A stretch of 64,000 bases of DNA from an uncultured Alphaproteobacteria bacterium (GCA_902567855.1 CACFOQ010000002.1:15163-79162), one strand, 5' to 3'. Shown: positions 13,732 to 30,924, numbered from the stretch's first letter. Program-made: numbers and translations. The notes: generated by a model not told the origin, from the sequence alone.

Positions 13732-13776
13732 TAAACTAGGATTTTTCTTTAACGATTTTTCAACAAAAATATGTTT

Positions 13777-13797: not shown

Positions 13798-13914
13798 ACA
13801 CATTCTTTTTCATCTTTGAAAAGTATGTTATTTATATTTTCTTAATTGGTTTTTTTCGGGTGTCATTAATCGGGGATATAGATTAACTTAATCTTTAATT
13901 CAATCAATTACCTA

Positions 13915-13942
13915 TCAACATCCCTCGTGGTTGGTGGTAGGA
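13915..13942 (+). repeat. 28-nt direct repeat, copy 1 (tcaacatccctcgtggttggtggtagga)
   Basis: Second copy at 14138-14165 with 2 mismatches. The pair brackets the small ORF 13964..14122. Confidence 0.8.
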
Positions 13943-13963
13943 TGATTTTGAAAGTAAGAACTT

Positions 13964-14122
13964 ATGGATAATAAAATAATAGATAAATTTTTAAAATTCA
14001 TAGAAAAAGATGTAGTACCTCCTATAAAAAAAGATTTTACATGGCTGGCCAAGACTATAACTAAGGACTTGGAAAAACTTACAAAAGACAAAAAACAATC
14101 TAAAAAAAAGAATAAATCATAG
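13964..14122 (+). CDS. Small Lys-rich protein (52 aa), below the ORF-track cutoff; paralog of 32209..32391
   Basis: Hand translation: MDNKIIDKFLKFIEKDVVPPIKKDFTWLAKTITKDLEKLTKDKKQSKKKNKS. It aligns along its length with the 60-aa ORF at 32209 (PIKKDFTWL, DLEKLTK.KKQSKKK). Confidence 0.6.
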   Translation: MDNKIIDKFLKFIEKDVVPPIKKDFTWLAKTITKDLEKLTKDKKQSKKKNKS

Positions 14123-14137
14123 GAATAAATAATATCC

Positions 14138-14165
14138 TCAACATTTCTCGTGGTTGGTGGTAGGA
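14138..14165 (+). repeat. 28-nt direct repeat, copy 2 (tcaacatttctcgtggttggtggtagga)
   Basis: See 13915-13942. Confidence 0.8.
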
Positions 14166-14192
14166 GTTTTAAAATGAATCCTCTTGGAAGAA

Positions 14193-14939: not shown

Positions 14940-14952
14940 TTATGGTTATCTT

Positions 14953-16275: not shown

Positions 16276-16278
16276 AAG

Positions 16279-17373
16279 TTATTTTTTATGTATTAAATCA
16301 AATATATCAACGTCTATCTGGTTAAGTATGTGTGCAATATCAATGGGCACCCAGTTTTCTCTTATTAATCCTTCGTGATGTAAATAAAAATCCATAACTC
16401 TCATTGTTACTGATTTGCCTGTGCCTTCATATCCAAGCCATTCTTTTGAACCATGCTTACACTCTATGCTGTGCCAACCTGATGTCATCGAAAAATTGCC
16501 ATCTGCAATTTCAATATAGTGTCCTATTTTCCAATAGTCTCTTTCCTTAAATGTTAGTCGAAATGGTAATTGATGATGATCAACATATCCTTTTAGCCCT
16601 CTTGCAGTACCTATACCGCTAGGACCATACCACATCATTTTAGGATGCCAGAAATCTTTTTGTGCATGATTTAATAATTTCTCTCTTATATATTCATAAT
16701 TAGATCCAGGATCAGTTTCAGGTTTGATGTTTAAACTTCTTTGCATTGTTAAAGCTTGCTCCATAGATTTAATTGATAATTCATTATCCATATTTTCAAA
16801 TGTTGTACCATCACCGGTTATTGGCCCTGGCCACATACCTTCCGCGCCTAGAGATTTATTTACTGGCCAAAATCCAGCCTGACGAATAAAATCTAAAGTA
16901 TCAATTAAAATGTGAGATTGAATAATTTTATTATCTTTGATTTCATGCGCTTCACATATTCTAAGATGAATTGTTTTGGCATGAGCAGGAACATTAAGCC
17001 ATGGATTTACAAAAGTCCCTGTTAAATGAGCTACTGTAGAAACAAAAATTTTATCTTGAAAAGATCCTCCAAGAATTAGATTATCCCTTCTTTCAAGATC
17101 AGGAAATGCATTTATAAGTGGTTTCCATAATTTTTCTGTTATTTCAGAAATTCCTTTTAAGTCATTAAGTGGATGGAATGCTCTTATTACCGCATCATCA
17201 TGATACGCATCACTAATATTTTTATTAATATTTTCTAAATTGGATTCAGCTATATTTTTTAGAAGAATTCTAATTTTTTTTTTATTTGCTAAATTTATCT
17301 TTGGATCTAAATTAATGACTTCAGTACTTCCCTCTTTTTTTATTCCAGTATTAAAATTTTCAATGTTTGTCAT
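16279..17373 (-). CDS. NTF2-like / SnoaL-like (ester-cyclase-like) two-domain protein; paralog of 24982..26055
   Basis: Shares PDLERRD, TGDG, WHP..WYGP.GIGT.RG, HQ.PF and LIRENWV..D blocks with 24982..26055. Confidence 0.5.
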   Translation of the reverse strand: MTNIENFNTGIKKEGSTEVINLDPKINLANKKKIRILLKNIAESNLENINKNISDAYHDDAVIRAFHPLNDLKGISEITEKLWKPLINAFPDLERRDNLILGGSFQDKIFVSTVAHLTGTFVNPWLNVPAHAKTIHLRICEAHEIKDNKIIQSHILIDTLDFIRQAGFWPVNKSLGAEGMWPGPITGDGTTFENMDNELSIKSMEQALTMQRSLNIKPETDPGSNYEYIREKLLNHAQKDFWHPKMMWYGPSGIGTARGLKGYVDHHQLPFRLTFKERDYWKIGHYIEIADGNFSMTSGWHSIECKHGSKEWLGYEGTGKSVTMRVMDFYLHHEGLIRENWVPIDIAHILNQIDVDIFDLIHKK

Positions 17374-17436
17374 AATTATTTAAATTTTAGTTACTCACAA
17401 TTAGGCAAATTTTAAATTGATTTATTCAATATTTTG

Positions 17437-17461
17437 AATATTATTCATTAAAAATGAATAA
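17437..17461 (+). promoter_or_regulatory. Candidate operator in a divergent promoter (aatattattcatta; palindrome ttattcat-taaaa-atgaataa)
   Basis: The 14-mer aatattattcatta recurs exactly at 21611-21624, upstream of the LacI-family gene and binding-protein gene. Confidence 0.3.
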
Positions 17462-17479
17462 AATATAATTTTTCCTAAA

Positions 17480-18448
17480 ATGTCAATAGATATAGAAAAA
17501 CGTCTAGCAAGATTTAATGATCTTATTCCCAGTAAGATCCCTTTTGTAGAAGGTAAGTTAAAAGGTCATCAGGATAGAAAAAATTATTCAATTGTCGGAC
17601 CAGGGGTAAGTGAAGATTCTAAGCAAAATGTAAAAATTGCTGAAGCTCACGGATTTAATATCGGGGCTGTAAGTGCTGCCCCAATGAATGGTTCAGGATT
17701 GCATAGTCATACAACTGCCGAGGTGTTTATTATACATGCTGGTTCATGGCGTTTTTATTGGGGAGTAAATGGCGAAGAGGGCGAAGTAATTCTTAGCAAA
17801 GGAGATGTAGCATCATTTCCTACTAATATGTTTAGAGGATTTCAAAATGTTAGTGATGAAGAAGCCCTTATGTTTGTTGCGCTAGGTGAAGATGATCCAG
17901 GTGTTATTACGTGGACTCCAAGATTATTGAAAGAAGCAAATGAATCAGGAATGTTATTAATGGAAGATCGTTCATTGGTTGATCTTAATAAGCAAAAAGT
18001 GCCTGAGGGTAAGTTAGTAACAAAACCTCTTGAAGATAAGGAACTGGAAAGCTTTGACCATTATACCTCAGATGAAATTGAGAAATTTGTTATTCGTTAT
18101 AATGATAATAAAAATTATGTTGATGATGAACATTATAATTCAAATTCAATAATTAATTATTTAGATTCATTTGAAATACATGGAAAAAAAATTGAACCTA
18201 AAATTCCTCACAAAACAGGCTTTGGATTGACTCTATTAAAAGGTGTTTCAGCCCATATGCATGCGTATTCTATTAATTCATCTGAAGTTTATAATTGTTT
18301 AAATGGCAAGTGGGAAGTCACATGTAATGATGAGAAAGTTATTCTCGAACCACGTGATAGTTTCTCTGCTCCAAAGAATTCTACAAGAAGTGTAAAACAG
18401 ATAAGCAATGATGAGGGTAGTTTATTTATCGTTAGGCAATCAAATTAA
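17480..18448 (+). CDS. Bicupin-domain protein
   Basis: Cupin motif GSGLHSHTTAEVFIIHAG in the N-terminal half and a second cupin-like half (GVSAHMHAY...). Confidence 0.65.
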   Translation: MSIDIEKRLARFNDLIPSKIPFVEGKLKGHQDRKNYSIVGPGVSEDSKQNVKIAEAHGFNIGAVSAAPMNGSGLHSHTTAEVFIIHAGSWRFYWGVNGEEGEVILSKGDVASFPTNMFRGFQNVSDEEALMFVALGEDDPGVITWTPRLLKEANESGMLLMEDRSLVDLNKQKVPEGKLVTKPLEDKELESFDHYTSDEIEKFVIRYNDNKNYVDDEHYNSNSIINYLDSFEIHGKKIEPKIPHKTGFGLTLLKGVSAHMHAYSINSSEVYNCLNGKWEVTCNDEKVILEPRDSFSAPKNSTRSVKQISNDEGSLFIVRQSN

Positions 18449-18460
18449 TTTATTAAAAAT

Positions 18461-19432
18461 ATGAAGGGTTTTGATAAAAAATTTAAAGATCTGCCTGATT
18501 ATATTCTTAAGATTACCTATCAGATTTGGGAGGATAAAGATGTTGAGTCAATTAGGGAGTATTATGCAAAGGGAATTCCGGTAAGATCTCCTGATGGAGT
18601 TATCTACGGACCTGATAAAGTAGTAAAAGCAACTTATGCTACGCTTGACGAATTTCCAGATCGGCAACTTCTTGGAGAGGATGTTATTTTTATAGGTAAT
18701 GAAAATGATGGTTATTTATCTTCGCATCGTATTTTAACAAAAGCGACTCATCTAAATGATGGAGTTTACGGAAAAGCCACAGGAATTAAAATATCTTACA
18801 GAGTTATAGCAGATTGTGCTTGTAAAAATAATCAAGTTTATGATGAATGGTTGGTTAGAGATCAGGGAGCAATAGTCAGACAGTTAAATTTAGATCCAAA
18901 AACCTATGCTAAAACATTAATTGATAAGCAAGGCGGTGTAACAAAATGCTCTATACCTTTTAATCAAAATACACCTCTAGATTTAAAATATACCCAGTTA
19001 AGTTTGCCTAAAAATAACACTGGTTATGAATATGCTGAAATATTAAAAACTATATTTCAAAAGGATTTGGATAGTATTGAAAAATTTTATGACAGATCTA
19101 TTAATCAAGAACAACCTAGTGGTCTTAAAGCGTATGGAGTAGACGAGGTTAAATCTTTTTGGTCATCAATTTTTTCTTCCTTTCCTGAAGCGACATTTAA
19201 AATTGAACATGTCAGTTATCTGGATGAGCCTGCAGCATATAGAAAAGCAGCGATAAGATGGTCTTTAAATGGTATCCACTCTGGTCCTGGGTATTTTGGC
19301 AATCCTAGTCAAACAAAAGTTTATGTAATGGGAATTTCTCATGCAGAATTTGGTCCCAGAGGTATAAAAAATGAGTGGGTTTTATTTGATGAAACTGCAA
19401 TATGGAAACAAATTTTAATGAAAACTGGTTAA
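18461..19432 (+). CDS. NTF2-like / SnoaL-like two-domain protein
   Basis: 323 aa. The YQIWEDKDVESIREYYA start and repeated halves resemble ester-cyclase-like proteins. Confidence 0.45.
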   Translation: MKGFDKKFKDLPDYILKITYQIWEDKDVESIREYYAKGIPVRSPDGVIYGPDKVVKATYATLDEFPDRQLLGEDVIFIGNENDGYLSSHRILTKATHLNDGVYGKATGIKISYRVIADCACKNNQVYDEWLVRDQGAIVRQLNLDPKTYAKTLIDKQGGVTKCSIPFNQNTPLDLKYTQLSLPKNNTGYEYAEILKTIFQKDLDSIEKFYDRSINQEQPSGLKAYGVDEVKSFWSSIFSSFPEATFKIEHVSYLDEPAAYRKAAIRWSLNGIHSGPGYFGNPSQTKVYVMGISHAEFGPRGIKNEWVLFDETAIWKQILMKTG

Positions 19433-19445
19433 GGATAGATAAACA

Positions 19446-20576
19446 TTGAATACGAAAATTTTAACAACCCATGTTGGAAGTTTACCACGTTCAAAAACAT
19501 TATCTGAATTTCTTTTTGCTAAAGATAAGGGAGAAAGTTTTAATTTAAATGAGTTTGATGAAGTAGTATCTCAAAATGTGCATGAAATTGTAAAAAAACA
19601 ATTAGATATTGGTATTGATTTTATCAGTGATGGGGAAATGAGTAAAATCAGTTATGCTACCTATGTCAAAGAGAGAATAAATGGCTTTTCTGGAGAAAGT
19701 GAAAGAAGAGCTCCTGCTGATTTGGATGCATTTCCCGAATATAAAGAAAAAATTGCCAAAAGTGGTGGAACGCCTACTTATACCCGTCCCTGTTGTACTG
19801 GAGAGCTGTCACTTAAAAAAAATAGTGACCTTTTAAAAGATATAAATAATTTTACATCTGCTCTTAAATCAAACAACCATAAAAACGGCTTTATGAACTC
19901 TGCTTCACCAGGGGTTATAAATGTTTTTTTACCAAACAAATATTATAAAAATGATGATGAGTATCTTGAAAAACTATCTTCAATAATGTCTGATGAATAT
20001 GAAACAATTACATCAAAAAATTTATATTTACAAATTGATTGTCCTGATTTGGCTTTAGCTAGGCATATGAATTTCAAAGATATGGATGAAAAAAGTTTTT
20101 TACATCGCGCTGAAAAACAAATTGAAGCTCTCAATGCTTCTCTCGCAGCAGTTCCACAGGATCAAATTAGAATTCATATTTGCTGGGGTAATTATGAAGG
20201 GCCTCATACTTTTGATGTTGCTTTGGAAAAAATTTTACCAATTGTTCTAAAAGCTAAAACTAAATACCTGTTAATTGAGTCTTCAAATCCAAGACATGCT
20301 CATGAATGGAAGGTGTTTGAGAATATTAAATTACCAAAAGATAAAGTTATTGTTCCAGGGGTTATTGACTCGACATCAAATTTTGTTGAACATCCTGAAG
20401 TTGTTTCAGATCGACTTAGACAATTTGCAAGTGTTGTTCCAAAAGATCAGATTATGGCAGGTACAGATTGTGGTTTTAGTACATTTGCTGGATTTGGAAA
20501 AGTTGACGAGAAAATTTGTTATGAAAAATTAGGCTCCCTAGTTAAAGGTGCTAAAATAGCCTCAAATATAATTTGA
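19446..20576 (+). CDS. Cobalamin-independent methionine-synthase-family (MetE C-terminal-like) protein
   Basis: 376 aa. HICWGN (His/Cys) and GTDCGFS (Cys) Zn-ligand-like motifs. TTG start. Confidence 0.7.
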   Translation: MNTKILTTHVGSLPRSKTLSEFLFAKDKGESFNLNEFDEVVSQNVHEIVKKQLDIGIDFISDGEMSKISYATYVKERINGFSGESERRAPADLDAFPEYKEKIAKSGGTPTYTRPCCTGELSLKKNSDLLKDINNFTSALKSNNHKNGFMNSASPGVINVFLPNKYYKNDDEYLEKLSSIMSDEYETITSKNLYLQIDCPDLALARHMNFKDMDEKSFLHRAEKQIEALNASLAAVPQDQIRIHICWGNYEGPHTFDVALEKILPIVLKAKTKYLLIESSNPRHAHEWKVFENIKLPKDKVIVPGVIDSTSNFVEHPEVVSDRLRQFASVVPKDQIMAGTDCGFSTFAGFGKVDEKICYEKLGSLVKGAKIASNII

Positions 20577-20589
20577 ATTGTTAATTTTT

Positions 20590-21591
20590 TTATCTAGTTG
20601 TATTTCGATAAATAAATTTGCCCTGTATTACATGATTAACAGGCTCAAATTCTGGATCCTTTATATTATCATCTATAATTTGGGTAACAAGCTTTGACAT
20701 TTGTCTAATAGGTTGTCTAATTGTTGTTAAATTATATGAATACCAATTTGCTGTTGATATGTCATCATATCCAATTACCTCTATTTCTTTTGGGATATTT
20801 AATTTTGTATTTTCTTTAATATAATCAAGGCAACCAAAAGCCATAGTATCGTCAGCACAAAACAATGCTGTAATATTTTTTTTTAAAAGTTTTTTTGCTG
20901 ACTCGAAACCTCCTTCATATGTAAAATTTCCTTTTTCATGAAAAAATTTAATTTTGTTTAAATTTTTAAAATGGTTTTTAAAACCTTTACATCTTTCATT
21001 ACTTACAAAGGATCCAGTTGGTCCTTCAACCATTCCTATATTAATATGTCCATTGGTAATGAAATGTTCTGCCGCTGCTTCTCCCCCATATCTGTGATCA
21101 CAAGCTACAGAACTCAATGTGGGTATTTTCCAATTTCTATTAAAAGCGATAAGTTGAATTTGTTTGGATAAACAATTTTCTACAAATGCATCCGTAGGCT
21201 TTGTAGCCGAAACAATCGCAACTAATCTCTCTTTTAGGTAAGGTTGAATTAAGTTGTTATCAAGTTCTTCACCATCATCGGTTGTAATTAAAAGTATCCT
21301 GTACCCACTCATTCGAAGAGCCTCATGTAATTCAGTTAGGACTTCAGGATAATATCTATTGGTGATATAGGGTAATATTACGCCCACTAGCCCACCATCC
21401 ACTGATGAAGAAAAAGAATGCTGAATAGTTTGATGTTTATAGCCCAATTTTTTAGCAGCTTCGATGACGCGTAATTTTGTGCGATTTGAGATACTGGCTC
21501 CTTTGGTGAAGCACCGAGAGACTGCTGACTGGGATACACCAGCTAATGTGGCCACATTCTGGGATGTTGGATTCTTTAATTTAGTTTTCAT
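20590..21591 (-). CDS. LacI-family transcriptional regulator
   Basis: N-terminal HTH NVATLAGVSQSAVSRCF plus a periplasmic-binding-protein-like effector domain. Confidence 0.9.
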   Translation of the reverse strand: MKTKLKNPTSQNVATLAGVSQSAVSRCFTKGASISNRTKLRVIEAAKKLGYKHQTIQHSFSSSVDGGLVGVILPYITNRYYPEVLTELHEALRMSGYRILLITTDDGEELDNNLIQPYLKERLVAIVSATKPTDAFVENCLSKQIQLIAFNRNWKIPTLSSVACDHRYGGEAAAEHFITNGHINIGMVEGPTGSFVSNERCKGFKNHFKNLNKIKFFHEKGNFTYEGGFESAKKLLKKNITALFCADDTMAFGCLDYIKENTKLNIPKEIEVIGYDDISTANWYSYNLTTIRQPIRQMSKLVTQIIDDNIKDPEFEPVNHVIQGKFIYRNTTR

Positions 21592-21610
21592 TTATGCCTT
21601 TATCCACCGA

Positions 21611-21624
21611 AATATTATTCATTA
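21611..21624 (+). promoter_or_regulatory. Candidate operator (aatattattcatta) in the lacI / binding-protein intergenic region
   Basis: Exact 14-mer shared with 17437-17450. A nearby inverted repeat attgcat ... atgcaat lies at about 21625-21653. Confidence 0.3.
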
Positions 21625-21731
21625 CATTGCATATTTATTCAAAACAATGCAATATATTTATTATAAATATTTATAATATTAATTCTCTTAATATAACAAT
21701 TTATTTTAAGGGTAATTAATAAGGAGGAAAA

Positions 21732-22973
21732 ATGTTATTTAAAAAACTAATATTAGTTGGATTTATTTCCCTATTTTTCAGCTCATCTTTGTATGCAGCT
21801 GATTGTGGACCGAATGGGCAATCAATCCGAATTCTAGCAAGTGATTTTCCAGCAATTCACGCAATAGCAAATTCTGCTGAAAGTAATTGTGCAGGATCTG
21901 CTTCTGAATTCAATCGAAATCATACTACCGAAGCACGTCAAATAATGAATGCTGCTCAAACACCAAATCCAGCAGAGTATACTTCAGTTATTGTAGCTAA
22001 CTCTACCCTAGTTCAATTAATGAACGATGGACTTGTTAGACCATTAGATGATTTAGTTGAAAAATATGGTGGTCACTTAAAATCTAACCAACTGATAACT
22101 ATTGATGGAAAAATAATGGCAATAGCGTTTATGGCAAATTCTCAGCACATGTATTATAGAACAGATATTTTAGAAAAATCTGGGGTTGATGGAATACCAG
22201 CAACTTATGATGAAGTAATATCTGCTGCTGAAAAGATACGTGCAGCTGGTATCATGGAGCATCCACTTGTAATGAATCTCAAAGTCGGATGGAATGTTGG
22301 TGAAGTATTTAACACTATATACCTAGCACATGGTGGAGAATTCTTTAAGCCTGGTAGTGCTGAAGCATCTATTAATAATGCCAAAGGTGTTGCTGCTCTA
22401 GAAACAATGAAAGCTCTTGTAGAGTATGCTCACCCTGATCATTTAACGCAGGCATCTGATGATACGCAAGGATTATGGGAAGCTGGTCAAGCGGCAATTG
22501 GCTTTATGTGGGGTTCTCGTGGAGGAGTTATACTAGATAATGAAGGTTCTTCAGCTGAAGTGACTTCAAATACTGTTTTATCTGCAGCTCCAACTGTTAC
22601 TGGTGGCTCAATACCAGGAGCAACTCTATGGTGGGATGGAATAACTATAGCTACTAACGTGTCTGACAGTGAAGCAGAAGCAACGTTTGCAGCACTTGTA
22701 AGTGGTATGACTTCAGAAATGGTTGCTGCTAATAATGATGATGCAATTTGGTTAATTGATGGTTTTAAACCTGGTCCAGCTGCAGCAGGAGTTTCTGCAA
22801 CTGCTCAAGGCGGTGCTAAATCTTACCCGATGTTTGCTCAAATGGGATTATTGCACAATGCATTAGGTGCAGAGCTAGTTGATTTTTTAAAGGGATCTGA
22901 GAGCGCTGAACAAGCACTTAGTGATGTAGAGGCTGTTTACGAAACAGCTGCTAAAGACGCAGGTTATCTGTAG
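21732..22973 (+). CDS. ABC transporter extracellular solute-binding protein (family 1 / CUT1-like)
   Basis: Signal peptide, 413 aa, followed by MalF/MalG-type permeases. Confidence 0.75.
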   Translation: MLFKKLILVGFISLFFSSSLYAADCGPNGQSIRILASDFPAIHAIANSAESNCAGSASEFNRNHTTEARQIMNAAQTPNPAEYTSVIVANSTLVQLMNDGLVRPLDDLVEKYGGHLKSNQLITIDGKIMAIAFMANSQHMYYRTDILEKSGVDGIPATYDEVISAAEKIRAAGIMEHPLVMNLKVGWNVGEVFNTIYLAHGGEFFKPGSAEASINNAKGVAALETMKALVEYAHPDHLTQASDDTQGLWEAGQAAIGFMWGSRGGVILDNEGSSAEVTSNTVLSAAPTVTGGSIPGATLWWDGITIATNVSDSEAEATFAALVSGMTSEMVAANNDDAIWLIDGFKPGPAAAGVSATAQGGAKSYPMFAQMGLLHNALGAELVDFLKGSESAEQALSDVEAVYETAAKDAGYL

Positions 22974-22995
22974 TCAATATAAATAAATCAGTAAA

Positions 22996-23023
22996 AAGGG
23001 GTTTTCAAATTTGAAAACCCCTT
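22996..23023 (+). terminator. Perfect 14+14 palindrome after the binding-protein gene (attenuator or stabiliser hairpin)
   Basis: aaggggttttcaaa/tttgaaaacccctt. Only a weak T-tract follows. Confidence 0.45.
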
Positions 23024-23053
23024 GTATCTTTCTATGTAATTTAAAATCGCATA

Positions 23054-24088
23054 ATGAAGCACAGCACATTCTTATTATTTTCTCTTCCTTCATTAAGTGT
23101 AATGTTTTTATTTATTGCAATACCTATAGTTTCTGTTTTTATTCAATCTCTGCATATTGAGCATAAACAAGTAATAATTGTTACAGAAAATTGTGATCCT
23201 TTTGGATGTGAGACAACAACAGCTGTGGATACTGAAGCTTCCGCAAAGTTAAAAGAAAAAGCACCTCTTGGTAAATTTAATGGATTTAAAACATATTCAA
23301 ACAGAATGCATTTTGCATTTGATGAAGTAGGAGAAGCTTGGAAGAGCTCGGATAGTTTTACAGTTTTTACTAAAAAATTATATAATTACCCCCTATATAG
23401 AGCGCTCAGTTTCACTCTTACTTACACCTTCGTAGTTACTCCTTTTGTCTTATTTCTTGGTTTTTTAGTTGCCGTTGGAGTTAATAATCTTCCAAAGATG
23501 TTTAAAGGTCCAACAATTTTTGCATCTCTTCTTCCAATGATAGTTACACCTCTTGTTGGTTCATTGATACTTTTCTGGATGGTTGACGGTGATGGTGTGA
23601 TTGGGGCTACACTCCAAAAAATATTTAATGATAATTCTCTTAGCTTGAAAGCATCACCTGTGCTTACCTGGATTATGTTGATGGTATACGGTATTTGGCA
23701 TTTGATGCCTTTTAGTTTTATTGTTTTTTATGCAGGTCTTCAAACGGTTCCTCAAGAAACAATAGAGGCGGCAACAATAGATGGCGCATCAAAATTTCAA
23801 AGAATACGCCACGTTGTTATTCCTCATTTAATGCCACTTGCTATTTTCATCACTTTAATACTTTTGATGGATAATTTTAGAGTTTTTGAACCAATCATAG
23901 GTTTTAGAGCAGAAGCGCACGCCACCTCAATATCGTGGTTAATATGGAATCATTTGCGAGAAAGTGCTTACCCTCTCTATAACGCCGCAGGTGCTACATC
24001 TATGGTTACTATTTTTGGTGTAGCAATTTTACTCTTGCCCGTACTAATTCGAACATGGCGAGATTTTAAAGAAAAAAATAAAGGTTAG
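23054..24088 (+). CDS. ABC transporter permease (MalF-like)
   Basis: EAA loop EAATIDGASKFQRIRHVVIP. Large periplasmic loop after TM1. Confidence 0.85.
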   Translation: MKHSTFLLFSLPSLSVMFLFIAIPIVSVFIQSLHIEHKQVIIVTENCDPFGCETTTAVDTEASAKLKEKAPLGKFNGFKTYSNRMHFAFDEVGEAWKSSDSFTVFTKKLYNYPLYRALSFTLTYTFVVTPFVLFLGFLVAVGVNNLPKMFKGPTIFASLLPMIVTPLVGSLILFWMVDGDGVIGATLQKIFNDNSLSLKASPVLTWIMLMVYGIWHLMPFSFIVFYAGLQTVPQETIEAATIDGASKFQRIRHVVIPHLMPLAIFITLILLMDNFRVFEPIIGFRAEAHATSISWLIWNHLRESAYPLYNAAGATSMVTIFGVAILLLPVLIRTWRDFKEKNKG

Positions 24089-24094
24089 GAATTT

Positions 24095-24976
24095 GTGAAT
24101 ACAAAAATTGAAAATAAATTAACCCCAGTTCGTATTATTGCTTTTATATTTGTGGCTCTGTGGTTGGTTATTGCTATGTTTCCTTTTATTTGGACATTGT
24201 GGGGATCTTTCAAAGTACAAGCTGATTTTTTTTCAAAAGCTGATTGGTCAAATGCAATATTTGGCTTTCATACTGAAAAACAAACAGGCGGTTTTTTTAC
24301 TATGGATGGATATTATGGCTCTTGGATTGAAGAAGAATTTTGGCGTGCCGTTATTAATACAAGCATAGTAGTATTTTTTACAGTTTTAATTTCTCTTACT
24401 TTTGGAACTTTAGGTGGTTATGCTCTTGCAAGGTCTACTTATCGTTATGCCTTCTGGATTTTAATGGCAGGTCTGATCTTTCGTGCGATGCCTCATATGA
24501 CTTTGATTTCAGGATATCTTCAACCTTTTTTTGCATGGAATGTTTGGGGAATTTTGCCTACAACAATAATTGTGCTTGTTGCAATTAACCAACCTTTTAC
24601 TCTGTGGATGCTACATTCATTTTTTTTAAACATACCAAAAGATTTAGATGAAAGCGCTATGTGCGATGGTTGTAATAGATTTCAAGCATTTAGATATGTG
24701 ATCATTCCTATAATGTGGCCAGGGGTAATCACTACTGGATTATTTAGTTTCCTTCTTGCTTACAATGATTTTACAGTTACATCCATGTTGCTTTCAGATG
24801 AAAATGAAACAATGATTCCAGCAATTGCAAGTTTTCTAGGTACTGTCCAAGAAGAAGGTAAAGTAATGTATGCTGTAGCAGCCGTTGTTTCAGCAACTGC
24901 TCCATTATTCTTTTTTGTACTGTTTTTTCAAAGACAGATTGTTAGTGGATTAACAGCTGGAGCAGTAAAAGGTTAA
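24095..24976 (+). CDS. ABC transporter permease (MalG-like)
   Basis: EAA loop ESAMCDGCNRFQAFRYVIIP. GTG start. Confidence 0.85.
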   Translation: MNTKIENKLTPVRIIAFIFVALWLVIAMFPFIWTLWGSFKVQADFFSKADWSNAIFGFHTEKQTGGFFTMDGYYGSWIEEEFWRAVINTSIVVFFTVLISLTFGTLGGYALARSTYRYAFWILMAGLIFRAMPHMTLISGYLQPFFAWNVWGILPTTIIVLVAINQPFTLWMLHSFFLNIPKDLDESAMCDGCNRFQAFRYVIIPIMWPGVITTGLFSFLLAYNDFTVTSMLLSDENETMIPAIASFLGTVQEEGKVMYAVAAVVSATAPLFFFVLFFQRQIVSGLTAGAVKG

Positions 24977-24981
24977 AAGTA

Positions 24982-26055
24982 ATGAAATCAGAGCAATTAA
25001 AAAAATACTTTGAAGATTATCAAATAGCTACTCAAAATTTTAATAAAAATTCAATAAATAATTCTCTAACTAAATACTTCTCAGAACATTCTGTGTTTCA
25101 ATTCTGTTATCCCTTTGGAACGTTTAATGGATTAGATAATTTTTTATCTAATTGTATCAATCCTCTTTTAGAAAGTATTCCAGATCTTGAAAGAAGAGAT
25201 ATGATTGTTATGGCAGGCACAACACCTGAAGATAAACACTGGGTAGGTACTATGGGTAATTATATGGGAACATTTTTAAAATCATTTTTAGATATTCCAC
25301 CAACTGGTAATTTAGTTCATATGCGTTATCATGAGTTTTTCCAAATTGAAAATAATCAGATTATAGAAATGCAATCAATATGGGATCTACCTGAACTGAT
25401 GATCCAGGCCAATGCATGGCCAATGAGTCCTCAGCTAGGATCTTTTTTATGTACACCATCTCCGATGACCGGAGACGGTTTAAAAATAAAAGGCGATGGA
25501 TCAAAAAATTTTGATCTTGTGATTAATATGCTTCAAGACATGGTTTTACACCCTAGTAATCCAGATCCACAAGTTATGAATTTAGATAAGTATTGGCACC
25601 CCAGATTTAATTGGTATGGACCAGCTGGAATTGGAACTGGAAGAGGTATAGCAGGATTTCGCCATTGGCATCAAATACCCTTCTTACGTGCAATGCCGGA
25701 TAGAAAGGGAGGTTCATCAAATGATAGCTTAAAAAATGAGGGATTGAAGGATATGCTAACTCATTGGATATATGAAGGAGATTATGTCTGTGAAACTGGT
25801 TGGCCAAATATGCGATCTACAATATCACAAGATGGATGGATGGGTATTGCTCCTTCAAACCAGATTATAGAAATGCGGAGTTTAGATTTTTGGAGAGTTG
25901 AAAATAATCTTATAAGGGAGAATTGGGTTTTAGTAGATCTTCTGGATGTTTATCAGCAAATAGGCGTTAATGTTTTTGATAGAATAAAAGAATTTAACAA
26001 AGCAAGAAATGTTGGTGATATTAACATTTCTCAAGGACTTGATTTAATTAAATAA
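24982..26055 (+). CDS. NTF2-like / SnoaL-like two-domain protein; paralog of 16279..17373
   Basis: Block-wise similarity to 16279..17373, as listed for that feature. Confidence 0.5.
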   Translation: MKSEQLKKYFEDYQIATQNFNKNSINNSLTKYFSEHSVFQFCYPFGTFNGLDNFLSNCINPLLESIPDLERRDMIVMAGTTPEDKHWVGTMGNYMGTFLKSFLDIPPTGNLVHMRYHEFFQIENNQIIEMQSIWDLPELMIQANAWPMSPQLGSFLCTPSPMTGDGLKIKGDGSKNFDLVINMLQDMVLHPSNPDPQVMNLDKYWHPRFNWYGPAGIGTGRGIAGFRHWHQIPFLRAMPDRKGGSSNDSLKNEGLKDMLTHWIYEGDYVCETGWPNMRSTISQDGWMGIAPSNQIIEMRSLDFWRVENNLIRENWVLVDLLDVYQQIGVNVFDRIKEFNKARNVGDINISQGLDLIK

Positions 26056-26072
26056 ATATTGATATAGAAGAA

Positions 26073-26840
26073 ATGTATTTACAAAAATTTGAAGTCAAAA
26101 ACAAAACTGCATTAGTAACGGGAGCAGGAAAAGGTTTGGGAAAAGCATGTGCTATTGCTTTGGCTGAGGCAGGAGCCAATCTCATTATATTAAGTCGTAC
26201 CAAAACTGACTTAACAAAAGTTGAAAAACAAATAATAAAATTAAATAGAAAATGTCGATCAATCGTATGTGATGTAACAAATTATGAAGATGTAAAAAAA
26301 ACTTTTTCCTCCATATCTAAGTTAGATATTCTTGTTAATAATGCTGGAACTAATAGACCTGAATATTTTACAAAAATTAAAAAAAAAGATATGGATGATG
26401 TTGTTGATTTGAATATTAAAGCCGCATTTCATATTGCACAATTGGCTTCAAAAATAATGCTAAGATCCAAAAATCGAAAGAAAGTTGGGGCTTCCATAAT
26501 AAATATGTCTTCTCAATTAGGAAAAGTAGGAGCTCCACGCCGAAGTGTTTACAATATGACGAAATTTGGAATTGAAGGATTAACCAAAGGAATGGCTGTG
26601 GATTTAGCTAAACATAATATTCGTGTCAATTCAGTTTGTCCCACATTTGTTAAAACGCCAATGGTTGAAAAGTTTTTTAAAGATAAAGAATTTATGAAAT
26701 CTGTATTAAAAAACATTCCTTTAGGCAGAATAGGTTCAGAAAGCGATATTGCTACAGCTGTAGTGTATCTAGCCTCCAATGCATCATCAATGATTACTGG
26801 CTCATCATTAGTAATAGATGGTGGTTGGACAGCAAAATAA
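26073..26840 (+). CDS. Short-chain dehydrogenase/reductase (classical SDR)
   Basis: TGAGKGLG cofactor motif, NNAG, catalytic YNMTK. Confidence 0.9.
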   Translation: MYLQKFEVKNKTALVTGAGKGLGKACAIALAEAGANLIILSRTKTDLTKVEKQIIKLNRKCRSIVCDVTNYEDVKKTFSSISKLDILVNNAGTNRPEYFTKIKKKDMDDVVDLNIKAAFHIAQLASKIMLRSKNRKKVGASIINMSSQLGKVGAPRRSVYNMTKFGIEGLTKGMAVDLAKHNIRVNSVCPTFVKTPMVEKFFKDKEFMKSVLKNIPLGRIGSESDIATAVVYLASNASSMITGSSLVIDGGWTAK

Positions 26841-26851
26841 TTAAAATTTCT

Positions 26852-26872
26852 CGGCGCACATACGGCGCACTT
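26852..26872 (+). repeat. Barcode 2R: cggcgcacat-a-cggcgcactt
   Basis: Identical to 2L. CACAT begins 85 nt before the fragment 3 core. Starts 12 nt after the SDR stop. Confidence 0.85.
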
Positions 26873-26941
26873 AGACACCCGGTATTTACATTTTCACGTT
26901 TAATTTTTCCTAGAAACCTTACACTTTGTTTTTAATCAGCA

Positions 26942-27002
26942 CGCTTGGAAAGCGTGTGTAGTAGCAATACTACCGAGGGTTCGAATCCCTCTCTCTCCGC
27001 CA
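26942..27002 (+). repeat. tRNA-Ser 3' fragment 3 (61 nt; variable-arm allele B tgtagta-gcaa-tactac)
   Basis: Differs from the intact gene only by two compensatory pairs in the variable arm. Preceded by ..tttaatcagca. Confidence 0.95.
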
Positions 27003-27047
27003 AAAACTTAATTTTTTCTTTAACGATTTTTCTGTAATTTTAAATCT

Positions 27048-27068
27048 GGTCTCACATAGGTCTCATTT
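27048..27068 (+). repeat. Barcode 3L: ggtctcacat-a-ggtctcattt
   Basis: CACAT begins 51 nt after the fragment 3 CCA. Confidence 0.8.
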
Positions 27069-27090
27069 TAAGAATAAATAAAATATTATT

Positions 27091-27285
27091 TTAATACAAG
27101 GAAATACCTCCTCGATGATTAATAGTAATAGTTCCTGATAGATATTCTGCAAATGCTTCTTTTACACCAAATAGTTCGTTTACTATTGGAAAAGAAAATG
27201 CGTTTAAGACTATACCTATTGCAAAAACAGCAAGAATTAGTTTAACCGATTTTTCTAATTTTATTTCATAAGTTACTTTTTTCAT
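27091..27285 (-). CDS. Small single-TM protein (64 aa)
   Basis: ATG preceded by aaggat. One central hydrophobic helix (LILAVFAIGIVLNAFSFPIV). Confidence 0.5.
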   Translation of the reverse strand: MKKVTYEIKLEKSVKLILAVFAIGIVLNAFSFPIVNELFGVKEAFAEYLSGTITINHRGGISLY

Positions 27286-27352
27286 TTTTAATCCTTTGTT
27301 TAAATTATTTAAAGATTACAATATTCTTTGTATTGTTTTTGTAAATTAATTT

Positions 27353-27373
27353 GGTCTTACTTTGGTCTCACTA
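27353..27373 (+). repeat. Barcode 3R: ggtcttactt-t-ggtctcacta
   Basis: Decayed copy of 3L. It sits 84 nt before the fragment 4 core. Confidence 0.7.
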
Positions 27374-27441
27374 CCTAAGTTAAAAACTATAAATTAACCC
27401 TAAATAATCTTTGTTTTTTGTAGAAATTTATAAAATCAGCA

Positions 27442-27502
27442 CGCTTGGAAAGCGTGTATAGTGGCAACACTATCGAGGGTTCGAATCCCTCTCTCTCCGC
27501 CA
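27442..27502 (+). repeat. tRNA-Ser 3' fragment 4 (61 nt; allele A)
   Basis: Identical to 12249-12309. Preceded by ..ataaaatcagca. Confidence 0.95.
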
Positions 27503-27547
27503 TAAATTAAGATTTTCCTTTAACAATTTTTCAGCAAAAATATGTTT

Positions 27548-27568
27548 CGACACACATACGGCGCACTT
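27548..27568 (+). repeat. Barcode 4L: cgacacacat-a-cggcgcactt
   Basis: CACAT begins 51 nt after the fragment 4 CCA. The first unit is decayed. Confidence 0.8.
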
Positions 27569-27617
27569 TGCAACCTATTTTTTATCTACATTTTATATAG
27601 TTGGTGGTAATATTATC

Positions 27618-28061
27618 TTGATGCAAAAGTTTATCAATATAGCCATTTTATTAATGTTGTTTTTTTTTGCAAATAATGTTTTAGGAAAGACTTTAGTGGC
27701 TAAATATTATTGTATAGCAAATGATTTAGTTGGAGTTGAATACTATCCGAATAAAAAATCTTCAGTATTTAATTTAAACAATGAAAATAATCATTTTAAA
27801 CTTAAAATATTTAAAAAAGAAAATGAATATTTTTTTGAGACCGGACTAGCAACCGATTTATGGTTATGGGATTCTATGAAAGGATCATCTGATCCTTATG
27901 GTCCATGGACTACTCTGAATGGATATTTAAAACTTTTTAAAGCAAGTGATAAATTAAGATTTGTTTTATTGCAAGAAACAATAGGAAAAGGTAATAATGA
28001 AGTAGATCGTTTGGCTCATTCGAATGTATATTTGTATGACGGAACATGTCATAGAAATTAA
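27618..28061 (+). CDS. Secreted hypothetical protein (147 aa)
   Basis: Signal peptide (..FFFANNVLGK). Cys near each end. ATG at 27621. Its stop abuts the next start. Confidence 0.55.
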   Translation: MMQKFINIAILLMLFFFANNVLGKTLVAKYYCIANDLVGVEYYPNKKSSVFNLNNENNHFKLKIFKKENEYFFETGLATDLWLWDSMKGSSDPYGPWTTLNGYLKLFKASDKLRFVLLQETIGKGNNEVDRLAHSNVYLYDGTCHRN

Positions 28062-29288
28062 ATGACCAATATAGTTAAATTAAAATACGATTATTTAATG
28101 CATTTAGAATATGTTGGTGAAGTTAAGGATGGCTTGCCCCATGGACAAGGTACATTCAATATATATGGAGAAATATTATTTAAAGAATTAATTAAAAAAC
28201 TAAGAAACAAGGAATCAAAGGAAGGTGAGTACAAACATTTATCTAGCCACACACTTACCTCCGAATATCTTCAGCCACTTATAGAATTTTCTTTAAAAGA
28301 AAGTGAGCCAAAAGATTTTGACCAAGATGTTTTGGAAATGTCTATTAGGGGTAACTTTAAAGAAGGTCTTTGGGACGGACGCTTTTTCAGGATTCATTAT
28401 GATGTTATAAATGGAACAGAAAGTGAAGAAGGTGAAGAAGAAGAAGATTTTGAGATACATGCTGAAGGAATGATTTTTGAAAATAATATTATGGTTGAAG
28501 GAAGATTAGATTATGATGAAGGACATTATTTTGGTGAAGTTTTATATAATGAATTGTTTAGTCACGCTTTTAGAAAACAAATTAAAAATTCTATAGAAGG
28601 CAAAAAAATAGATTCTAAAAAACTCCCTGGAACTCTTTATTATCCTCATAATGAAGGATCATATCATTATCATGATCCGAATAACGAAAAATGGATTAGG
28701 GGCACTTGGGTAAAAGGCGAATTAACTAAAATTGACTACATACATGAATGCAAAGTTTTTCCAAACAATGATATTTATGAAGGAGGTACCAAAATAGATA
28801 ATATCAAAATATCTAAAGATTGGAGAATCAAGATAGATAGTTCTGGGATACCCGATGGTTATGGACAGATGGTTTCGGGAAGAAAGCACGATCAAGATGA
28901 TGATGGTTCTCAAATATATTATGGAATGTGGAAAGATGGCATAATGCATGGAAAAGGAACACTGATTGAAAAGGGAGAGTATACAAATATTGGTGATTTA
29001 CGAAACTACGATACACATCCTTTTGAAGCAAAAAAATATGTTGGCGAGATGAAAAATGGAAAAGCTAACGGTGAGGGAGTGCTGAGTTATATTAGAATAA
29101 AGAAAGACGTGATACCAAAAACTTTTTGGCAAAGTATCAATGACCAAGATTTTCCCCCGGAAGAAACTAAATTTTATGAGGGATCTTTCAAAGATAATTT
29201 ATTTCATGGACAAGGAACAATTTTTTATCATGATGGAACATCAAAGAAAGGTGAGTGGGTTAACGGAAAATTTAAAGAAAATAATTAA
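28062..29288 (+). CDS. MORN-repeat protein (408 aa)
   Basis: Repeated Y.G....G..HG.G motifs (YVGEVKDGLPHGQGTF, YYGMWKDGIMHGKGTL, YVGEMKNGKANGEGVL, YEGSFKDNLFHGQGTI). No signal peptide. Confidence 0.75.
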   Translation: MTNIVKLKYDYLMHLEYVGEVKDGLPHGQGTFNIYGEILFKELIKKLRNKESKEGEYKHLSSHTLTSEYLQPLIEFSLKESEPKDFDQDVLEMSIRGNFKEGLWDGRFFRIHYDVINGTESEEGEEEEDFEIHAEGMIFENNIMVEGRLDYDEGHYFGEVLYNELFSHAFRKQIKNSIEGKKIDSKKLPGTLYYPHNEGSYHYHDPNNEKWIRGTWVKGELTKIDYIHECKVFPNNDIYEGGTKIDNIKISKDWRIKIDSSGIPDGYGQMVSGRKHDQDDDGSQIYYGMWKDGIMHGKGTLIEKGEYTNIGDLRNYDTHPFEAKKYVGEMKNGKANGEGVLSYIRIKKDVIPKTFWQSINDQDFPPEETKFYEGSFKDNLFHGQGTIFYHDGTSKKGEWVNGKFKENN

Positions 29289-29295
29289 AATTTCT

Positions 29296-29316
29296 CGGCG
29301 CACATACGCCCTACTT
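29296..29316 (+). repeat. Barcode 4R: cggcgcacat-a-cgccctactt
   Basis: 85 nt before the fragment 5 core. The second unit is decayed. Starts 8 nt after the MORN gene stop. Confidence 0.8.
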
Positions 29317-29385
29317 ACACACCCGATATTTAAATTTTAACGTTTAATTTTTCCTAGAAACCCTACACTTTGTTTTTAATCAGCA

Positions 29386-29446
29386 CGCTTGGAAAGCGTG
29401 TGTAGTAGCAATACTACCGAGGGTTCGAATCCCTCTCTCTCCGCCA
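29386..29446 (+). repeat. tRNA-Ser 3' fragment 5 (61 nt; allele B)
   Basis: Identical to fragment 3. Preceded by ..tttaatcagca. Confidence 0.95.
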
Positions 29447-29492
29447 TAAATTTACAACTATAAAATACAAAATTAGGTTTTAATAGAGTTTT

Positions 29493-29513
29493 TGGCACAC
29501 ATATGGCACACTT
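29493..29513 (+). repeat. Barcode 5L: tggcacacat-a-tggcacactt
   Basis: CACAT begins 52 nt after the fragment 5 CCA, even though the intervening sequence is unrelated to the other left arms. Confidence 0.85.
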
Positions 29514-29571
29514 GCTAAAAAATAAATTATTATAGTTTTTTTATGGACTGTTTATTAGCTTATATTTTTAT

Positions 29572-30768
29572 ATGAATAAAATTATCTTATTTTTAATTTT
29601 GATAATTCCTTGTATTTCAAATGCTCAAATGAATATTTATGAAAATAATGCAAACTATATTATTTCAGGAGTTTTAGATTATTCTTATTGCACCGATACT
29701 ACTAGTTTTGATGAAGATAAAAGAAAAGATTATGAGTTATATGAAATATTTAACGCAAACTTTAAACAAATAAATCAAAATTATTTTTTAAAAGATAATC
29801 AAGTAACAAATGAAAATGTACTTAAAAAAATTGATGAAATTATAAGTTTAAAAAATAATAATTTGTTTATTTTTTATTTTGCGGGCCACGGTGTTTTAAA
29901 AGATGGAGAGCCTGGAATGTTAATGAGTGATTGCTCTGTAATTAAAAAATCAGAACTTAAAAATATTTTAAAGAAAAAAAACAATAAACAAAAAATTATA
30001 TTATTAGGAGATTTTTGTTATTCAGGACTATTAGCAGAAATTGCTAGAGAACTAAATTCAGAAGGATTAGATATTAACGCAATAACTAGCGCTAGTTCAA
30101 ACGTCTCAACTGGTTCATGGAGTTATACGCAAGCTTTAATCGACTCTTTTTCAGGAAGGCAAATTGTTGATAAAAACAATGATGGTCTAATAACTTTTTT
30201 TGATATGATTAATGAAGTTGAAGAAGTAATGTTAAATAGAGAAAGACAAAAATCTGACTACTTTATAACTGCAGATTTAAAGAATGTAATAATTTCTAAA
30301 TCAAAAATAAAAGATAAATCTAATATAAATTATGGTTCATGGTATTGTTCTAATGAAGGTATAACTAGAGTTATAGATATAAAGAATTCTATCTATGAAG
30401 TAGAATATTATAACTACAATAAATATGAATATAAAAAATTAAGTGAAAAAGATTTATATTCAATCCACGAAACAGATTTTGAAAAAGGCGATTTAATATC
30501 GGTTGTCTGGGAAAATGATAATTATGAAGCAAAAATAAAAAAGATCGATAGAATTTTTTATAAAATCTCTTATGTAGGTTGGGGTGATGAGTGGGATGAG
30601 TGGATTACAAAAAATAGAATCACTGGAAATGAAAAAGTAGAAATCAAATCTGATAACGTTTGGTATCCTGGAGAAATCATTCAATATAAGAATAATAAAT
30701 ATTTTATTAGATATAAAGATTATGATTTTTGTTTTGATGAATGGGTTGATAATTCTAGAATAAGATAA
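29572..30768 (+). CDS. Secreted caspase-like (peptidase C14-type His/Cys dyad) protein with two C-terminal Tudor/Agenet-like domains
   Basis: Signal peptide. FYFAGHG (His) and LLGDFCYSG (Cys) about 46 aa apart. C-terminal repeats GDLISVVWENDNYEAKIKKI..YKISYVGWGDEWDEWI and VEIKSDNVWYPGEIIQYKNNKYFIRYKDYDFCFDEWV. Confidence 0.65.
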   Translation: MNKIILFLILIIPCISNAQMNIYENNANYIISGVLDYSYCTDTTSFDEDKRKDYELYEIFNANFKQINQNYFLKDNQVTNENVLKKIDEIISLKNNNLFIFYFAGHGVLKDGEPGMLMSDCSVIKKSELKNILKKKNNKQKIILLGDFCYSGLLAEIARELNSEGLDINAITSASSNVSTGSWSYTQALIDSFSGRQIVDKNNDGLITFFDMINEVEEVMLNRERQKSDYFITADLKNVIISKSKIKDKSNINYGSWYCSNEGITRVIDIKNSIYEVEYYNYNKYEYKKLSEKDLYSIHETDFEKGDLISVVWENDNYEAKIKKIDRIFYKISYVGWGDEWDEWITKNRITGNEKVEIKSDNVWYPGEIIQYKNNKYFIRYKDYDFCFDEWVDNSRIR

Positions 30769-30774
30769 TTTTCT

Positions 30775-30795
30775 TGGCACACATATGGCACACTA
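30775..30795 (+). repeat. Barcode 5R: tggcacacat-a-tggcacacta
   Basis: 84 nt before the fragment 6 core. Starts 7 nt after the stop codon. Confidence 0.85.
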
Positions 30796-30863
30796 TCCAG
30801 ATCAATAATTAATATTTTATTCTAAATAACCTTTGTAATCCCTTAACTCTCTAAAAATCAGCA

Positions 30864-30924
30864 CGCTTGGAAAGCGTGTAAAGTAGCAATACTTTCGAGG
30901 GTTCGAATCCCTCTCTCTCCGCCA
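30864..30924 (+). repeat. tRNA-Ser 3' fragment 6, terminal (61 nt; allele C taaagta-gcaa-tacttt)
   Basis: Unique allele, again with compensatory pairs. No conserved box or barcode follows it. Candidate displaced original 3' half. Confidence 0.95.

Follow-up and report, generated by a model that had tools for sequence, protein, structure and literature searches.

A candidate trans-mobilised mini-cassette of 500 bp with matched tandem barcodes in a tRNA-Ser array of a SAR11-type genome

Among integrative elements of the ICESt1/ICESt3 type in streptococci, integrase-less derivatives flanked by attachment (att) sites are described as cis-mobilizable elements (CIMEs). Here we report on a 64-kb stretch of DNA from a SAR11-type marine genome (hereafter the window), in which a tRNA-Ser gene heads an array of five units, and in particular on the third of them, a mini-cassette with a period of 500 bp (unit 3, 26934-27433). 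Unit 3 retains the full site architecture of a tRNA-targeting element of the lambda/P4 style and carries neither an integrase nor an excisionase gene. Its best explanation, to which we assign a probability of about 0.58, would be a non-autonomous integrative mini-cassette that is mobilised in trans, CIME-like in build and integron-cassette-like in function.

SAR11 is the most abundant marine bacterium, and the question of how its flexible genes are acquired and exchanged is still open. Recent SAR11 pangenome papers report no canonical mobile elements and almost no island integrases (PMC11796062; PMC7542561). Partial tRNA repeats that mark cassettes in SAR11 islands were noted in one of them, without further anatomy in the portions available (PMC11796062), and the available text on island fGI-2 of Methylophilaceae describes tRNA-Lys repeats with units of 330 bp to 42 kb (PMC10872708). 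The integration sites of known pelagiphages are tRNA-Cys, tRNA-Leu and tRNA-Arg, with tRNA-Ser not among them. The tRNA-Ser islands described below are built from discrete units, each with a complete conserved recombination scaffold.

Anatomy of the mini-cassette and its array

The window has a G+C content of about 29%, and its nearest matches are SAR11/Pelagibacterales genomes from single cells and metagenomes. ARAGORN and Rfam agree on one intact tRNA-Ser(GGA) gene. Exact copies of the 28-nt 3' end of this tRNA lie on the same strand at 13704-13731, 26975-27002, 27475-27502, 29419-29446 and 30897-30924 (five observed versus zero expected, with none in 100 shuffles). They belong to partial tRNA copies of 69-85 nt that extend from the D-loop/anticodon stem through CCA, one at every unit border, and that split 12309-30924 into five units with start-to-start distances of 1422, 13271, 500, 1944 and 1478 bp. 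The features of unit 3 and the target of the array are as follows.

12220-12309, plus strand: intact tRNA-Ser(GGA), attachment target heading the array (ARAGORN; Rfam RF00005, 54.4 bits)
26934-27002, plus strand: partial tRNA-Ser copy, D-loop/anticodon stem to CCA (repeat alignment)
27003-27047, plus strand: left arm, with the box TTTCTTTAACGATTTTTC common to many other units (alignment and left-arm listing)
27048-27066, plus strand: left barcode GGTCTCAC-ATA-GGTCTCAT, two 8-mers 11 bp apart (tandem scan)
27091-27285, minus strand: cargo gene for a 64-aa peptide (open reading frame call and homologues)
27291-27296, minus strand: Shine-Dalgarno-like AAGGAT, 5 nt before the ATG (sequence; kept in the related cassettes of contigs L099 and L105)
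27318-27345, minus strand: promoter-like TTTACA-16 nt-TATTGT, the cassette's own (promoter scan)
27353-27371, plus strand: right barcode GGTCTTAC-TTT-GGTCTCAC, matching the left barcode (tandem scan)
27372-27433, plus strand: right arm, TAAATAATCTTTGT-type sequence common to other units (alignment)
27434-27502, plus strand: next partial tRNA-Ser copy, on the attR side for the mini-cassette and on the attL side for unit 4 (repeat alignment)

An earlier note on this DNA, made from the sequence alone, had described a 439-bp segment between tRNA fragments 3 and 4, holding a left box and barcode, a minus-strand reading frame for 64 aa with an aaggat ribosome-binding site, and a right barcode and arm. 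We found the segment at 27003-27441 with all of these parts in the places given there. The left edge of the fourth tRNA copy is fuzzy by about 8 nt, since the common sequence starts at 27434 (AATCAGCACGC) and identity to the window's own tRNA only at 27443. Under a Campbell-type model 26934-27002 would be the tRNA segment brought by the mini-cassette, on its attL side; over these 69 nt it is 100% identical to the segment left of the mini-cassette in L099 and 96% identical to that in L105. The left barcode begins 46 nt past CCA (the offset scored for the family is 45) and the right barcode ends 61 nt before the reference point of the following fragment, so that both arms stand at the usual distances of the family from the tRNA. 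By BLAST the right end of the unit, comprising right barcode, right arm and fragment start, matched locus L040 with 77% identity over 94 nt, and the right arm matched L080 with 83% over its distal 60 nt. Barcodes of the same class were present on both arms of units 1 (GGTTG), 2 (CGGCG), 3 (GGTCT) and 5 (TGGCA) and of unit 4, where the class is CGGCG-like and degraded.

The borders of unit 3 consist of direct repeats and a tRNA segment. The duplicated tRNA segment is present at both borders (exact 28-nt 3' ends within the 69-85-nt repeats), and a repeat search found no inverted repeat, such as an attC site would show, within or between the arms. Ends of the type of a miniature inverted-repeat transposable element or insertion sequence were likewise not seen, the ends being direct repeats and the 'duplication' being the 69-nt tRNA segment. 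No open reading frame (ORF) of 60 aa or more other than that of the 64-aa peptide was found in the unit, and it contains no integrase gene of the kind that would mark an autonomous element. A likeness between the sequence after the left barcode and the leader of SAR11 integrase genes (TTTAAGAATAAAT compared with TTAGAAAGGAATAAATG) was weak and too AT-rich to count as evidence.

We looked for recombinases with Pfam, two integrase hidden Markov models (HMMs) built from phage integrases, and tblastn with SAR11 integrases. None of the five units contained a recombinase-like ORF, and by integrase HMMs and tblastn no tyrosine recombinase was found anywhere in the 64-kb window, so there is no adjacent intI. 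Pfam further detected no recombinase or replication module of the tycheposon type in unit 3 or in the array. The view of the earlier note that a unit of 439 bp could not be autonomous is in line with the absence of a recombinase from every unit of the array. One integrase match, in L073, came from another organism with a different tRNA-Ser and looked like an Xer-type housekeeping gene; it was discarded.

Barcodes in SAR11 arrays and beside integrase genes

Tandem 8-mers with an 11-bp period occurred ten times in the window, all on the plus strand and all in or beside the array, compared with a mean of 0.48 in shuffles. An additional match of the tandem scan at 53648 (ATGACGAC/ATGACCAC) was unrelated to the barcodes. 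We then surveyed SAR11 by scanning one genome per species for the tRNA core, which gave 96 stretches, almost all of them from SAR11, and together with the window about 97 loci (loci and contigs are numbered with the prefix L). These loci held 35 closed units spanning 366-13271 bp, nine of which were no longer than 603 bp and carried one or two tiny ORFs each, their products being membrane proteins, lipoproteins or secreted.

Left and right barcodes were identical over all five variable core bases in 15 of the 19 units that could be scored. Mean agreement between the two sides was 4.47 out of 5 as against 2.81 in shuffles, the highest of 2000 shuffles reaching 3.84. Spacing was similarly regular: the left barcode lies 44-46 nt from CCA at 39 of 43 sites and the right barcode 61-62 nt from the fragment at 25 of 28, and this spacing from the tRNA is constant though the arm sequences form at least two types. 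Barcodes stand on both arms irrespective of the orientation or identity of the cargo. They fall into a limited number of classes, GGTCT, TGGCA, CGGCG, GGCTA, GGTTG, GATCA, GGTAG and others, and one class may enclose differing cargos; GGTCT flanks the peptide gene of unit 3, a gene for a 247-aa protein in L005, two small lipoprotein genes in L072 and one for a 151-aa lipoprotein in L040. The sites are also polymorphic for insertion: empty sites, in which an intact tRNA directly adjoins the conserved flank, were found at 11 loci at least, and in five arrays the last fragment is followed by the conserved flank as at the empty sites.

In two hybrid units (L053 1325-2362 and L071 3208-5128) the left and right barcodes belong to different classes; that of L053 has a GGTCT left barcode ahead of cargo homologous to the cargo of the GGTAG unit of L005. 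On the reverse strand of L007, about 130 nt upstream of a fragment whose CCA end lies at 2430, a left-arm-like sequence leads directly into a GGTAG barcode and on into a right arm without any intervening cargo, an arrangement that looks like an empty cassette as expected from recombination between left and right barcodes. The 11-mer GGTCTCACATT, the same unit as in the GGTCT barcode, also occurs with close variants in long satellite arrays of dozens of repeats on unrelated metagenome contigs of the Joint Genome Institute (JGI) with a GC content of 0.42-0.49 (L220, L224, L226 and L227).

The layout of a barcode pair, a core and a second pair was reproduced on viral and integrative-element contigs from outside SAR11 that carry a tRNA-Ser attP and an integrase and served as controls. 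In L149 TTGTGACA stands at -196, -185, +38 and +49 relative to the tRNA end, and in L156 and L201 TGTGCGGTT stands at -184, -173, +56 and +67. L218 and L219 have TTGGTCTCAYATTGGTCTCAG on both sides of the tRNA fragment, with the integrase gene ending 15 nt before the first pair, L207 shows a comparable attP arrangement, and L223 is another case. The genes adjoining the control attP sites belong to Phage_integrase by Pfam, that of L149 also having an Arm-DNA-bind_4 domain.

Within SAR11, a more sensitive HMM revealed an ORF of 106 aa matching integrase N-termini in L051, which derives from single amplified genome (SAG) AG-464-G03. The order here is the 5' half of tRNA-Ser, about 70 nt, TGCGTCAC-ATA-TGCGTCAC, 14 nt that include AAGGT, and then the integrase remnant from its ATG onward; about 2.5 kb further on, ahead of an intact tRNA-Ser, comes a second pair (TGTGTCAC-TTT-TGCGTCAC). 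L013 (SAG AG-897-D18) shares this layout, with GATCAC barcodes at both ends and an integrase remnant of 43 aa, and the metagenome contigs L231 and L234 repeat the arrangement of barcode and integrase at tRNA-Ser. In all four the barcode pair lies 14-16 nt upstream of the integrase ATG, and the barcode core terminates with CAC in three of them (L013, L051 and L231) and with AAC in L234. The Shine-Dalgarno-like motif before the integrase, AAGGT in L051, is AAGGA in L013, L232, L233 and L234. These four integrase-linked elements share the barcode format and the tRNA-Ser core of the cassettes, and class GATCA is common to the L013 element and to integrase-less cassettes, among them the 602-bp unit of L014. 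Relatives of the SAR11 integrase proteins carry Pfam domains Int_N and Phage_integrase, and one is labelled Pelagibacteraceae.

The same integrase family was also met at tRNA-Gln(TTG), at 1240-1400 of L233 and 3240-3395 of L232. L233 shows an intact tRNA, 33 nt, CGTCACAC-ATA-CGTCACAC, 14 nt and the integrase ATG, and L232 a decayed tRNA-Gln with a barcode of its own. Integrases of one family and barcodes are thus found at tRNA-Gln as well, and therefore the system is not confined to tRNA-Ser. The elements with integrase remnants, at about 2202-4490 of L013 and about 4530-7407 of L051 (both reverse), 5846-6444 of L231 and 7840-8733 of L234, are each bordered by the 5' half of tRNA-Ser at one end and by a complete tRNA at the opposite end. 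A conserved leader motif (...TTAATCCCGTATCGGTATTGTGGTAGGATAAT..GTGATG) stands shortly after the truncated integrase in L051 and is fused to it directly in L234; a cargo gene begins with this motif.

Arm-type sites of heterobivalent tyrosine integrases are usually recognised by a pair of direct repeats, spaced by one helical turn, on either side of a tRNA core. Because of the control attP layout, the linkage to SAR11 integrases, the occurrence in the array alone, the matching of left and right and the fixed spacing, the barcodes are best read as putative arm-type integrase binding sites that come in limited classes and are not unique labels.

Recurrence, peptide cargo and neighbouring units

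The earlier note had proposed a search for the cassette in other genomes or at other array positions, and this search was successful. The JGI contigs L099-L103 carry the same cassette with a period of 505 bp. Both of its arms have GGTCTCAC, and the peptide is encoded on the opposite strand; in these contigs the cassette directly follows the intact tRNA as the sole unit and precedes a decayed terminal fragment. Contig L105 of the European Nucleotide Archive has the same cassette beside a unit of class GGCTR. L095 (SAG AG-435-K07) shares the right end of unit 2, but there a GGCTA unit comes next in place of the mini-cassette. Among the three orthologous cassettes the barcodes are 84-100% identical, the promoter region (27286-27352) 79-91% and the ORF 79-90%, and the arms are 58-70% identical in full-length comparisons. 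The recurrence of the cassette, the exchanged neighbour in L095, the other cargos of class GGTCT and the higher conservation of barcodes than of arms favour the earlier claim that the arms and not the cargo define the unit. Two outcomes that would have spoken against it did not occur, as the ORF is conserved in relatives (11 and 180 clusters, see below) and the unit is not a one-off local deletion.

In L106 the cassette is incomplete, and what is left of it is joined on behind a gene for an ABC ATPase. At 1-869 of L107 the peptide is represented by two paralogues in tandem, of 68 and 62 aa, enclosed by the tandem sites CTTGGCAT-AAT-CTTGGCAC with homologous flanks and without a tRNA-Ser fragment, and here the peptide family seems to ride on a different scaffold. 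A peptide homologue without recognisable scaffold was found in L104. The 4.4-kb contig L098, labelled Candidatus Neomarinimicrobiota, ends in a sequence identical to the right end of unit 2 over 130 nt, followed by a tRNA fragment with a different variable-arm variant, and is probably a mis-binned SAR11 contig.

The 64-aa peptide has a basic N-terminus, one hydrophobic helix at about residues 14-31, an AFA-E motif and a variable C-terminal tail. Its homologues formed 11 clusters with 55-100% identity, one representative being 100% identical, and a profile search with the peptide yielded 180 clusters (clustering at 50% identity), almost all of 30-120 aa. The family conserves an AxA-E motif, and the tails of relatives often end in Cys-containing or SG-x-(I/L) motifs. 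The ratio of nonsynonymous to synonymous substitution rates (dN/dS) was 0.11-0.21 over the first 46 codons in comparison with distant paralogues, and because of this the ORF is taken as a real gene; among the closest cassette copies the ratio was noisy (0.18-1.36, with small counts), which leaves the distant-paralogue comparisons alone as informative. The peptide itself had no match in Pfam, PADLOC or NCBIfam, and hence belongs to no toxin, immunity or defence family described there; in PHROGs only matches with E>=0.03 were obtained, for other members of the family. Our best guess, made with low confidence, is that the product might be membrane-anchored or secreted, with an exposed and fast-evolving tail.

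Of the other units of the array, unit 1 holds three small membrane ORFs. Unit 2 devotes about 13 kb to metabolism and transport, including genes for histidinol dehydrogenase-like, SnoaL-like, cupin, MetE-like and SDR proteins, a LacI-type regulator and an ABC sugar transporter. Unit 4 encodes a secreted protein and a MORN-repeat protein, and unit 5 a protein with caspase-like and Tudor/Agenet domains (29572-30768, 398 aa; Peptidase_C14, Agenet and Tudor-knot), an unusual combination for a bacterium. Many cassettes have a conserved leader motif of about 28 nt (TCAACATCCCTCGTGGTTGGTGGTAGGA and variants) between the left barcode and the start codon of the first cargo gene, with sites at 13915-13942, 14138-14165 and 27585-27609 in the window and others in L005, L042, L053, L071 and L087; the motif might serve as a promoter or 5' leader, or mark the boundary of a module.

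The 5' half of the intact tRNA-Ser of the window is unusual (GGAGAGGTGGCCGAGTGGTTGAAGGCGCCCGC), unlike the common SAR11 tRNA-Ser, and creates a C:U mismatch in the anticodon stem. The common form (...GAGAGCGGTTTAATCAGCACGC) is present in all five fragments of the window and in most SAR11 genomes. We had considered AATCAGCACGC, left of the anticodon loop, as element-specific, yet the common SAR11 tRNA-Ser normally has this sequence as its D-arm and anticodon stem, and therefore most single matches in the scan of genomes represent intact tRNAs. At 12135-12153, some 85 nt ahead of the first base of tRNA-Ser, the window has a tandem TTGATCAC(A)-N3-(C/T)TGATCAC motif that recurs at 5761-5781 of L231, at about 7760-7780 of L234, and in L013 and L096. 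A reading of this GATCAC tandem as the arm of an element left of the tRNA was set aside, the copies in L231 and L234 preceding the displaced chromosomal 5' half of the tRNA. On sequence evidence it appears to be the native upstream region of the tRNA in the lineage of the window, which would place a barcode-like site on the attB side.

Possible movement of the unit and comparison with described systems

Under our preferred explanation a heterobivalent tyrosine integrase would be supplied in trans, encoded by a phage or a rare helper element present in the same cell. Its N-terminal domain would bind the two matching barcode pairs, while its core-binding and catalytic domains would bind the anticodon stem-loop within the tRNA-Ser 3' segment, which is the likely crossover core. 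Recombination of attL with attR would release a circle of about 500 bp, and the attP site on this circle would recombine with a tRNA-Ser gene or an array fragment, leading to insertion. We infer trans-mobilisation, the circular intermediate and an integrase acting on class GGTCT; the mini-cassette itself probably descends from an integrase-bearing element. Class-specific integrases acting in trans would offer a concrete and testable mechanism, and the combination of an N5-CAC tandem, a tRNA fragment and fixed spacing provides a signature for tracing cassette flow in metagenomes.

Several observations weigh against such mobility. All integrase copies found at tRNA-Ser in the SAGs are truncated remnants, and those in metagenomes are truncated or cut by contig ends. 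The integrase-linked elements carry the 5' half of the tRNA and the cassettes its 3' part, so the two need not share enzymes, and among the SAR11 integrases found none was linked to class GGTCT. No circular or attP-configured copy of the cassette was recovered; when JGI metagenome contigs were searched for a tRNA-Ser fragment flanked left and right by GGTCT, there were ten hits, none from SAR11, the matches being 11-bp satellite arrays and two attP sites of other bacteria. IMG/VR was scanned with the tRNA segment, with right-arm sequence and with barcodes of four classes; most of these scans gave no match, and no viral contig with the SAR11 tRNA-Ser segment, arms or these barcodes was found. 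The matches to the GGTCT and GGCTR patterns were high-GC contigs unrelated to SAR11 only, and a phage-database search with one junction module matched only the tRNA-Ser genes of unrelated phages. Differences in array position could also stem from vertical inheritance combined with turnover of neighbouring units, and the hybrid units with unmatched barcodes show that other recombination reshapes the arrays.

Truncated integrases at the SAG loci and the missing attP or circular forms would also suit an inert fossil, that is, the immobile remnant of an old integrase-mediated insertion which lost its integrase and spread by vertical descent with gain and loss of neighbours. The piece of cassette that L106 keeps behind an ABC ATPase gene fits such decay, and an old unit that never moved could still pass from position 1 to position 3 if later elements were inserted at the tRNA. 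Decay alone, however, does not sit well with both barcode pairs and their spacing being kept while the arm DNA diverged to 58-70%, nor with the agreement of left and right barcodes in many units and classes. The cassette is moreover the sole unit in L099-L103, whereas the window has older units distal to it, and therefore pure vertical descent needs extra deletions. We regard the fossil as unlikely, if by no means negligible. Less probable still is spread by RecA-dependent homologous shuffling through the tRNA repeats of 70-80 nt and the conserved arms, with no site-specific recombinase involved. Identical repeats of 69-85 nt do bound every unit, and both the hybrid units and the high recombination and unknown transfer mechanisms noted for SAR11 (PMC7542561) agree with it. 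Shuffling nevertheless leaves unexplained why the same class stands on both arms, why there are several classes with fixed spacing, and why the same format occurs beside integrase genes in SAR11 and in unrelated phages. It may add to site-specific recombination without replacing it, and because hybrid units (L053, L071) exist it probably also acts.

A purely regulatory role, with the tandem 8-mers as operators or insulators of the cassette genes bound by a regulator of the host or the element, seems very improbable to us. The position of the barcode just upstream of the integrase start codon would suit autoregulation. Against this role stand the presence of barcodes on both arms whatever the cargo and the fixed distance that is kept to the tRNA and not to genes. 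Operator and arm-site roles are compatible in any case, and arm sites that overlap int promoters are known in other systems. The trans-mobilised mini-cassette thus remains our preferred explanation. Extended to the whole group, and put forward tentatively as possible rather than probable, it would mean that SAR11, a group considered nearly devoid of mobile elements, runs an integron-like cassette economy at its tRNA genes, in which a large pool of integrase-less cassettes of 0.4-0.6 kb and up on full attP-type scaffolds use arm sites as address labels for at least eight integrase specificity classes, the integrases residing on rare helpers or phages, and that this economy is a main builder of the additive islands of SAR11.

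The unit resembles attP sites of the lambda, P4 and L5 type in having a core within a tRNA gene and, on each arm, direct repeats paired at a distance of about one helical turn, a layout reproduced in the integrase-bearing L149, L156, L207, L218 and L223. In elements of that type the integrase gene adjoins the site, whereas the mini-cassette has no integrase. Tycheposons of Prochlorococcus (bioRxiv 10.1101/2020.12.28.424599) are similar in their tRNA-targeted cargo, in residing in a streamlined marine bacterium, in tandem insertions split by partial tRNAs and in degenerate island remnants; they are defined by integrase and replication modules, and the mini-cassette has neither. Integron cassettes likewise measure about 0.5-1 kb, usually hold one gene and no recombinase, are stacked at one site, and are moved by a tyrosine recombinase encoded elsewhere, as we propose for the mini-cassette. 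Unlike them the mini-cassette has no attC hairpin, adjacent intI, attI or Pc; its site consists of a tRNA segment with direct-repeat arm sites, and it has a promoter-like site of its own.

With the additive islands of SAR11 and with fGI-2 the array shares cassettes split by partial tRNA repeats, the lack of an island integrase and units that can be very small. In their available text the island descriptions mention tRNA repeats only, whereas the mini-cassette units keep complete arms, matched tandem sites at fixed spacing and classes linked to integrases. The accessible portions of the literature searched make no mention of a complete arm-site scaffold on such small units, of site classes or of a link to a SAR11 integrase family. 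Like CIMEs, the mini-cassette has attL/attR-like flanks, which may be related to those of integrase-bearing elements at the same tRNA, carries no recombination genes, occurs in tandem and is presumed to be mobilised in trans. Unlike CIMEs it is far smaller (0.5 kb), belongs to a streamlined marine alphaproteobacterium, and stands in arrays of up to five or more units with several arm-site classes. If our explanation is true, a unit of 500 bp would rank among the smallest integrase-dependent integrative elements known.

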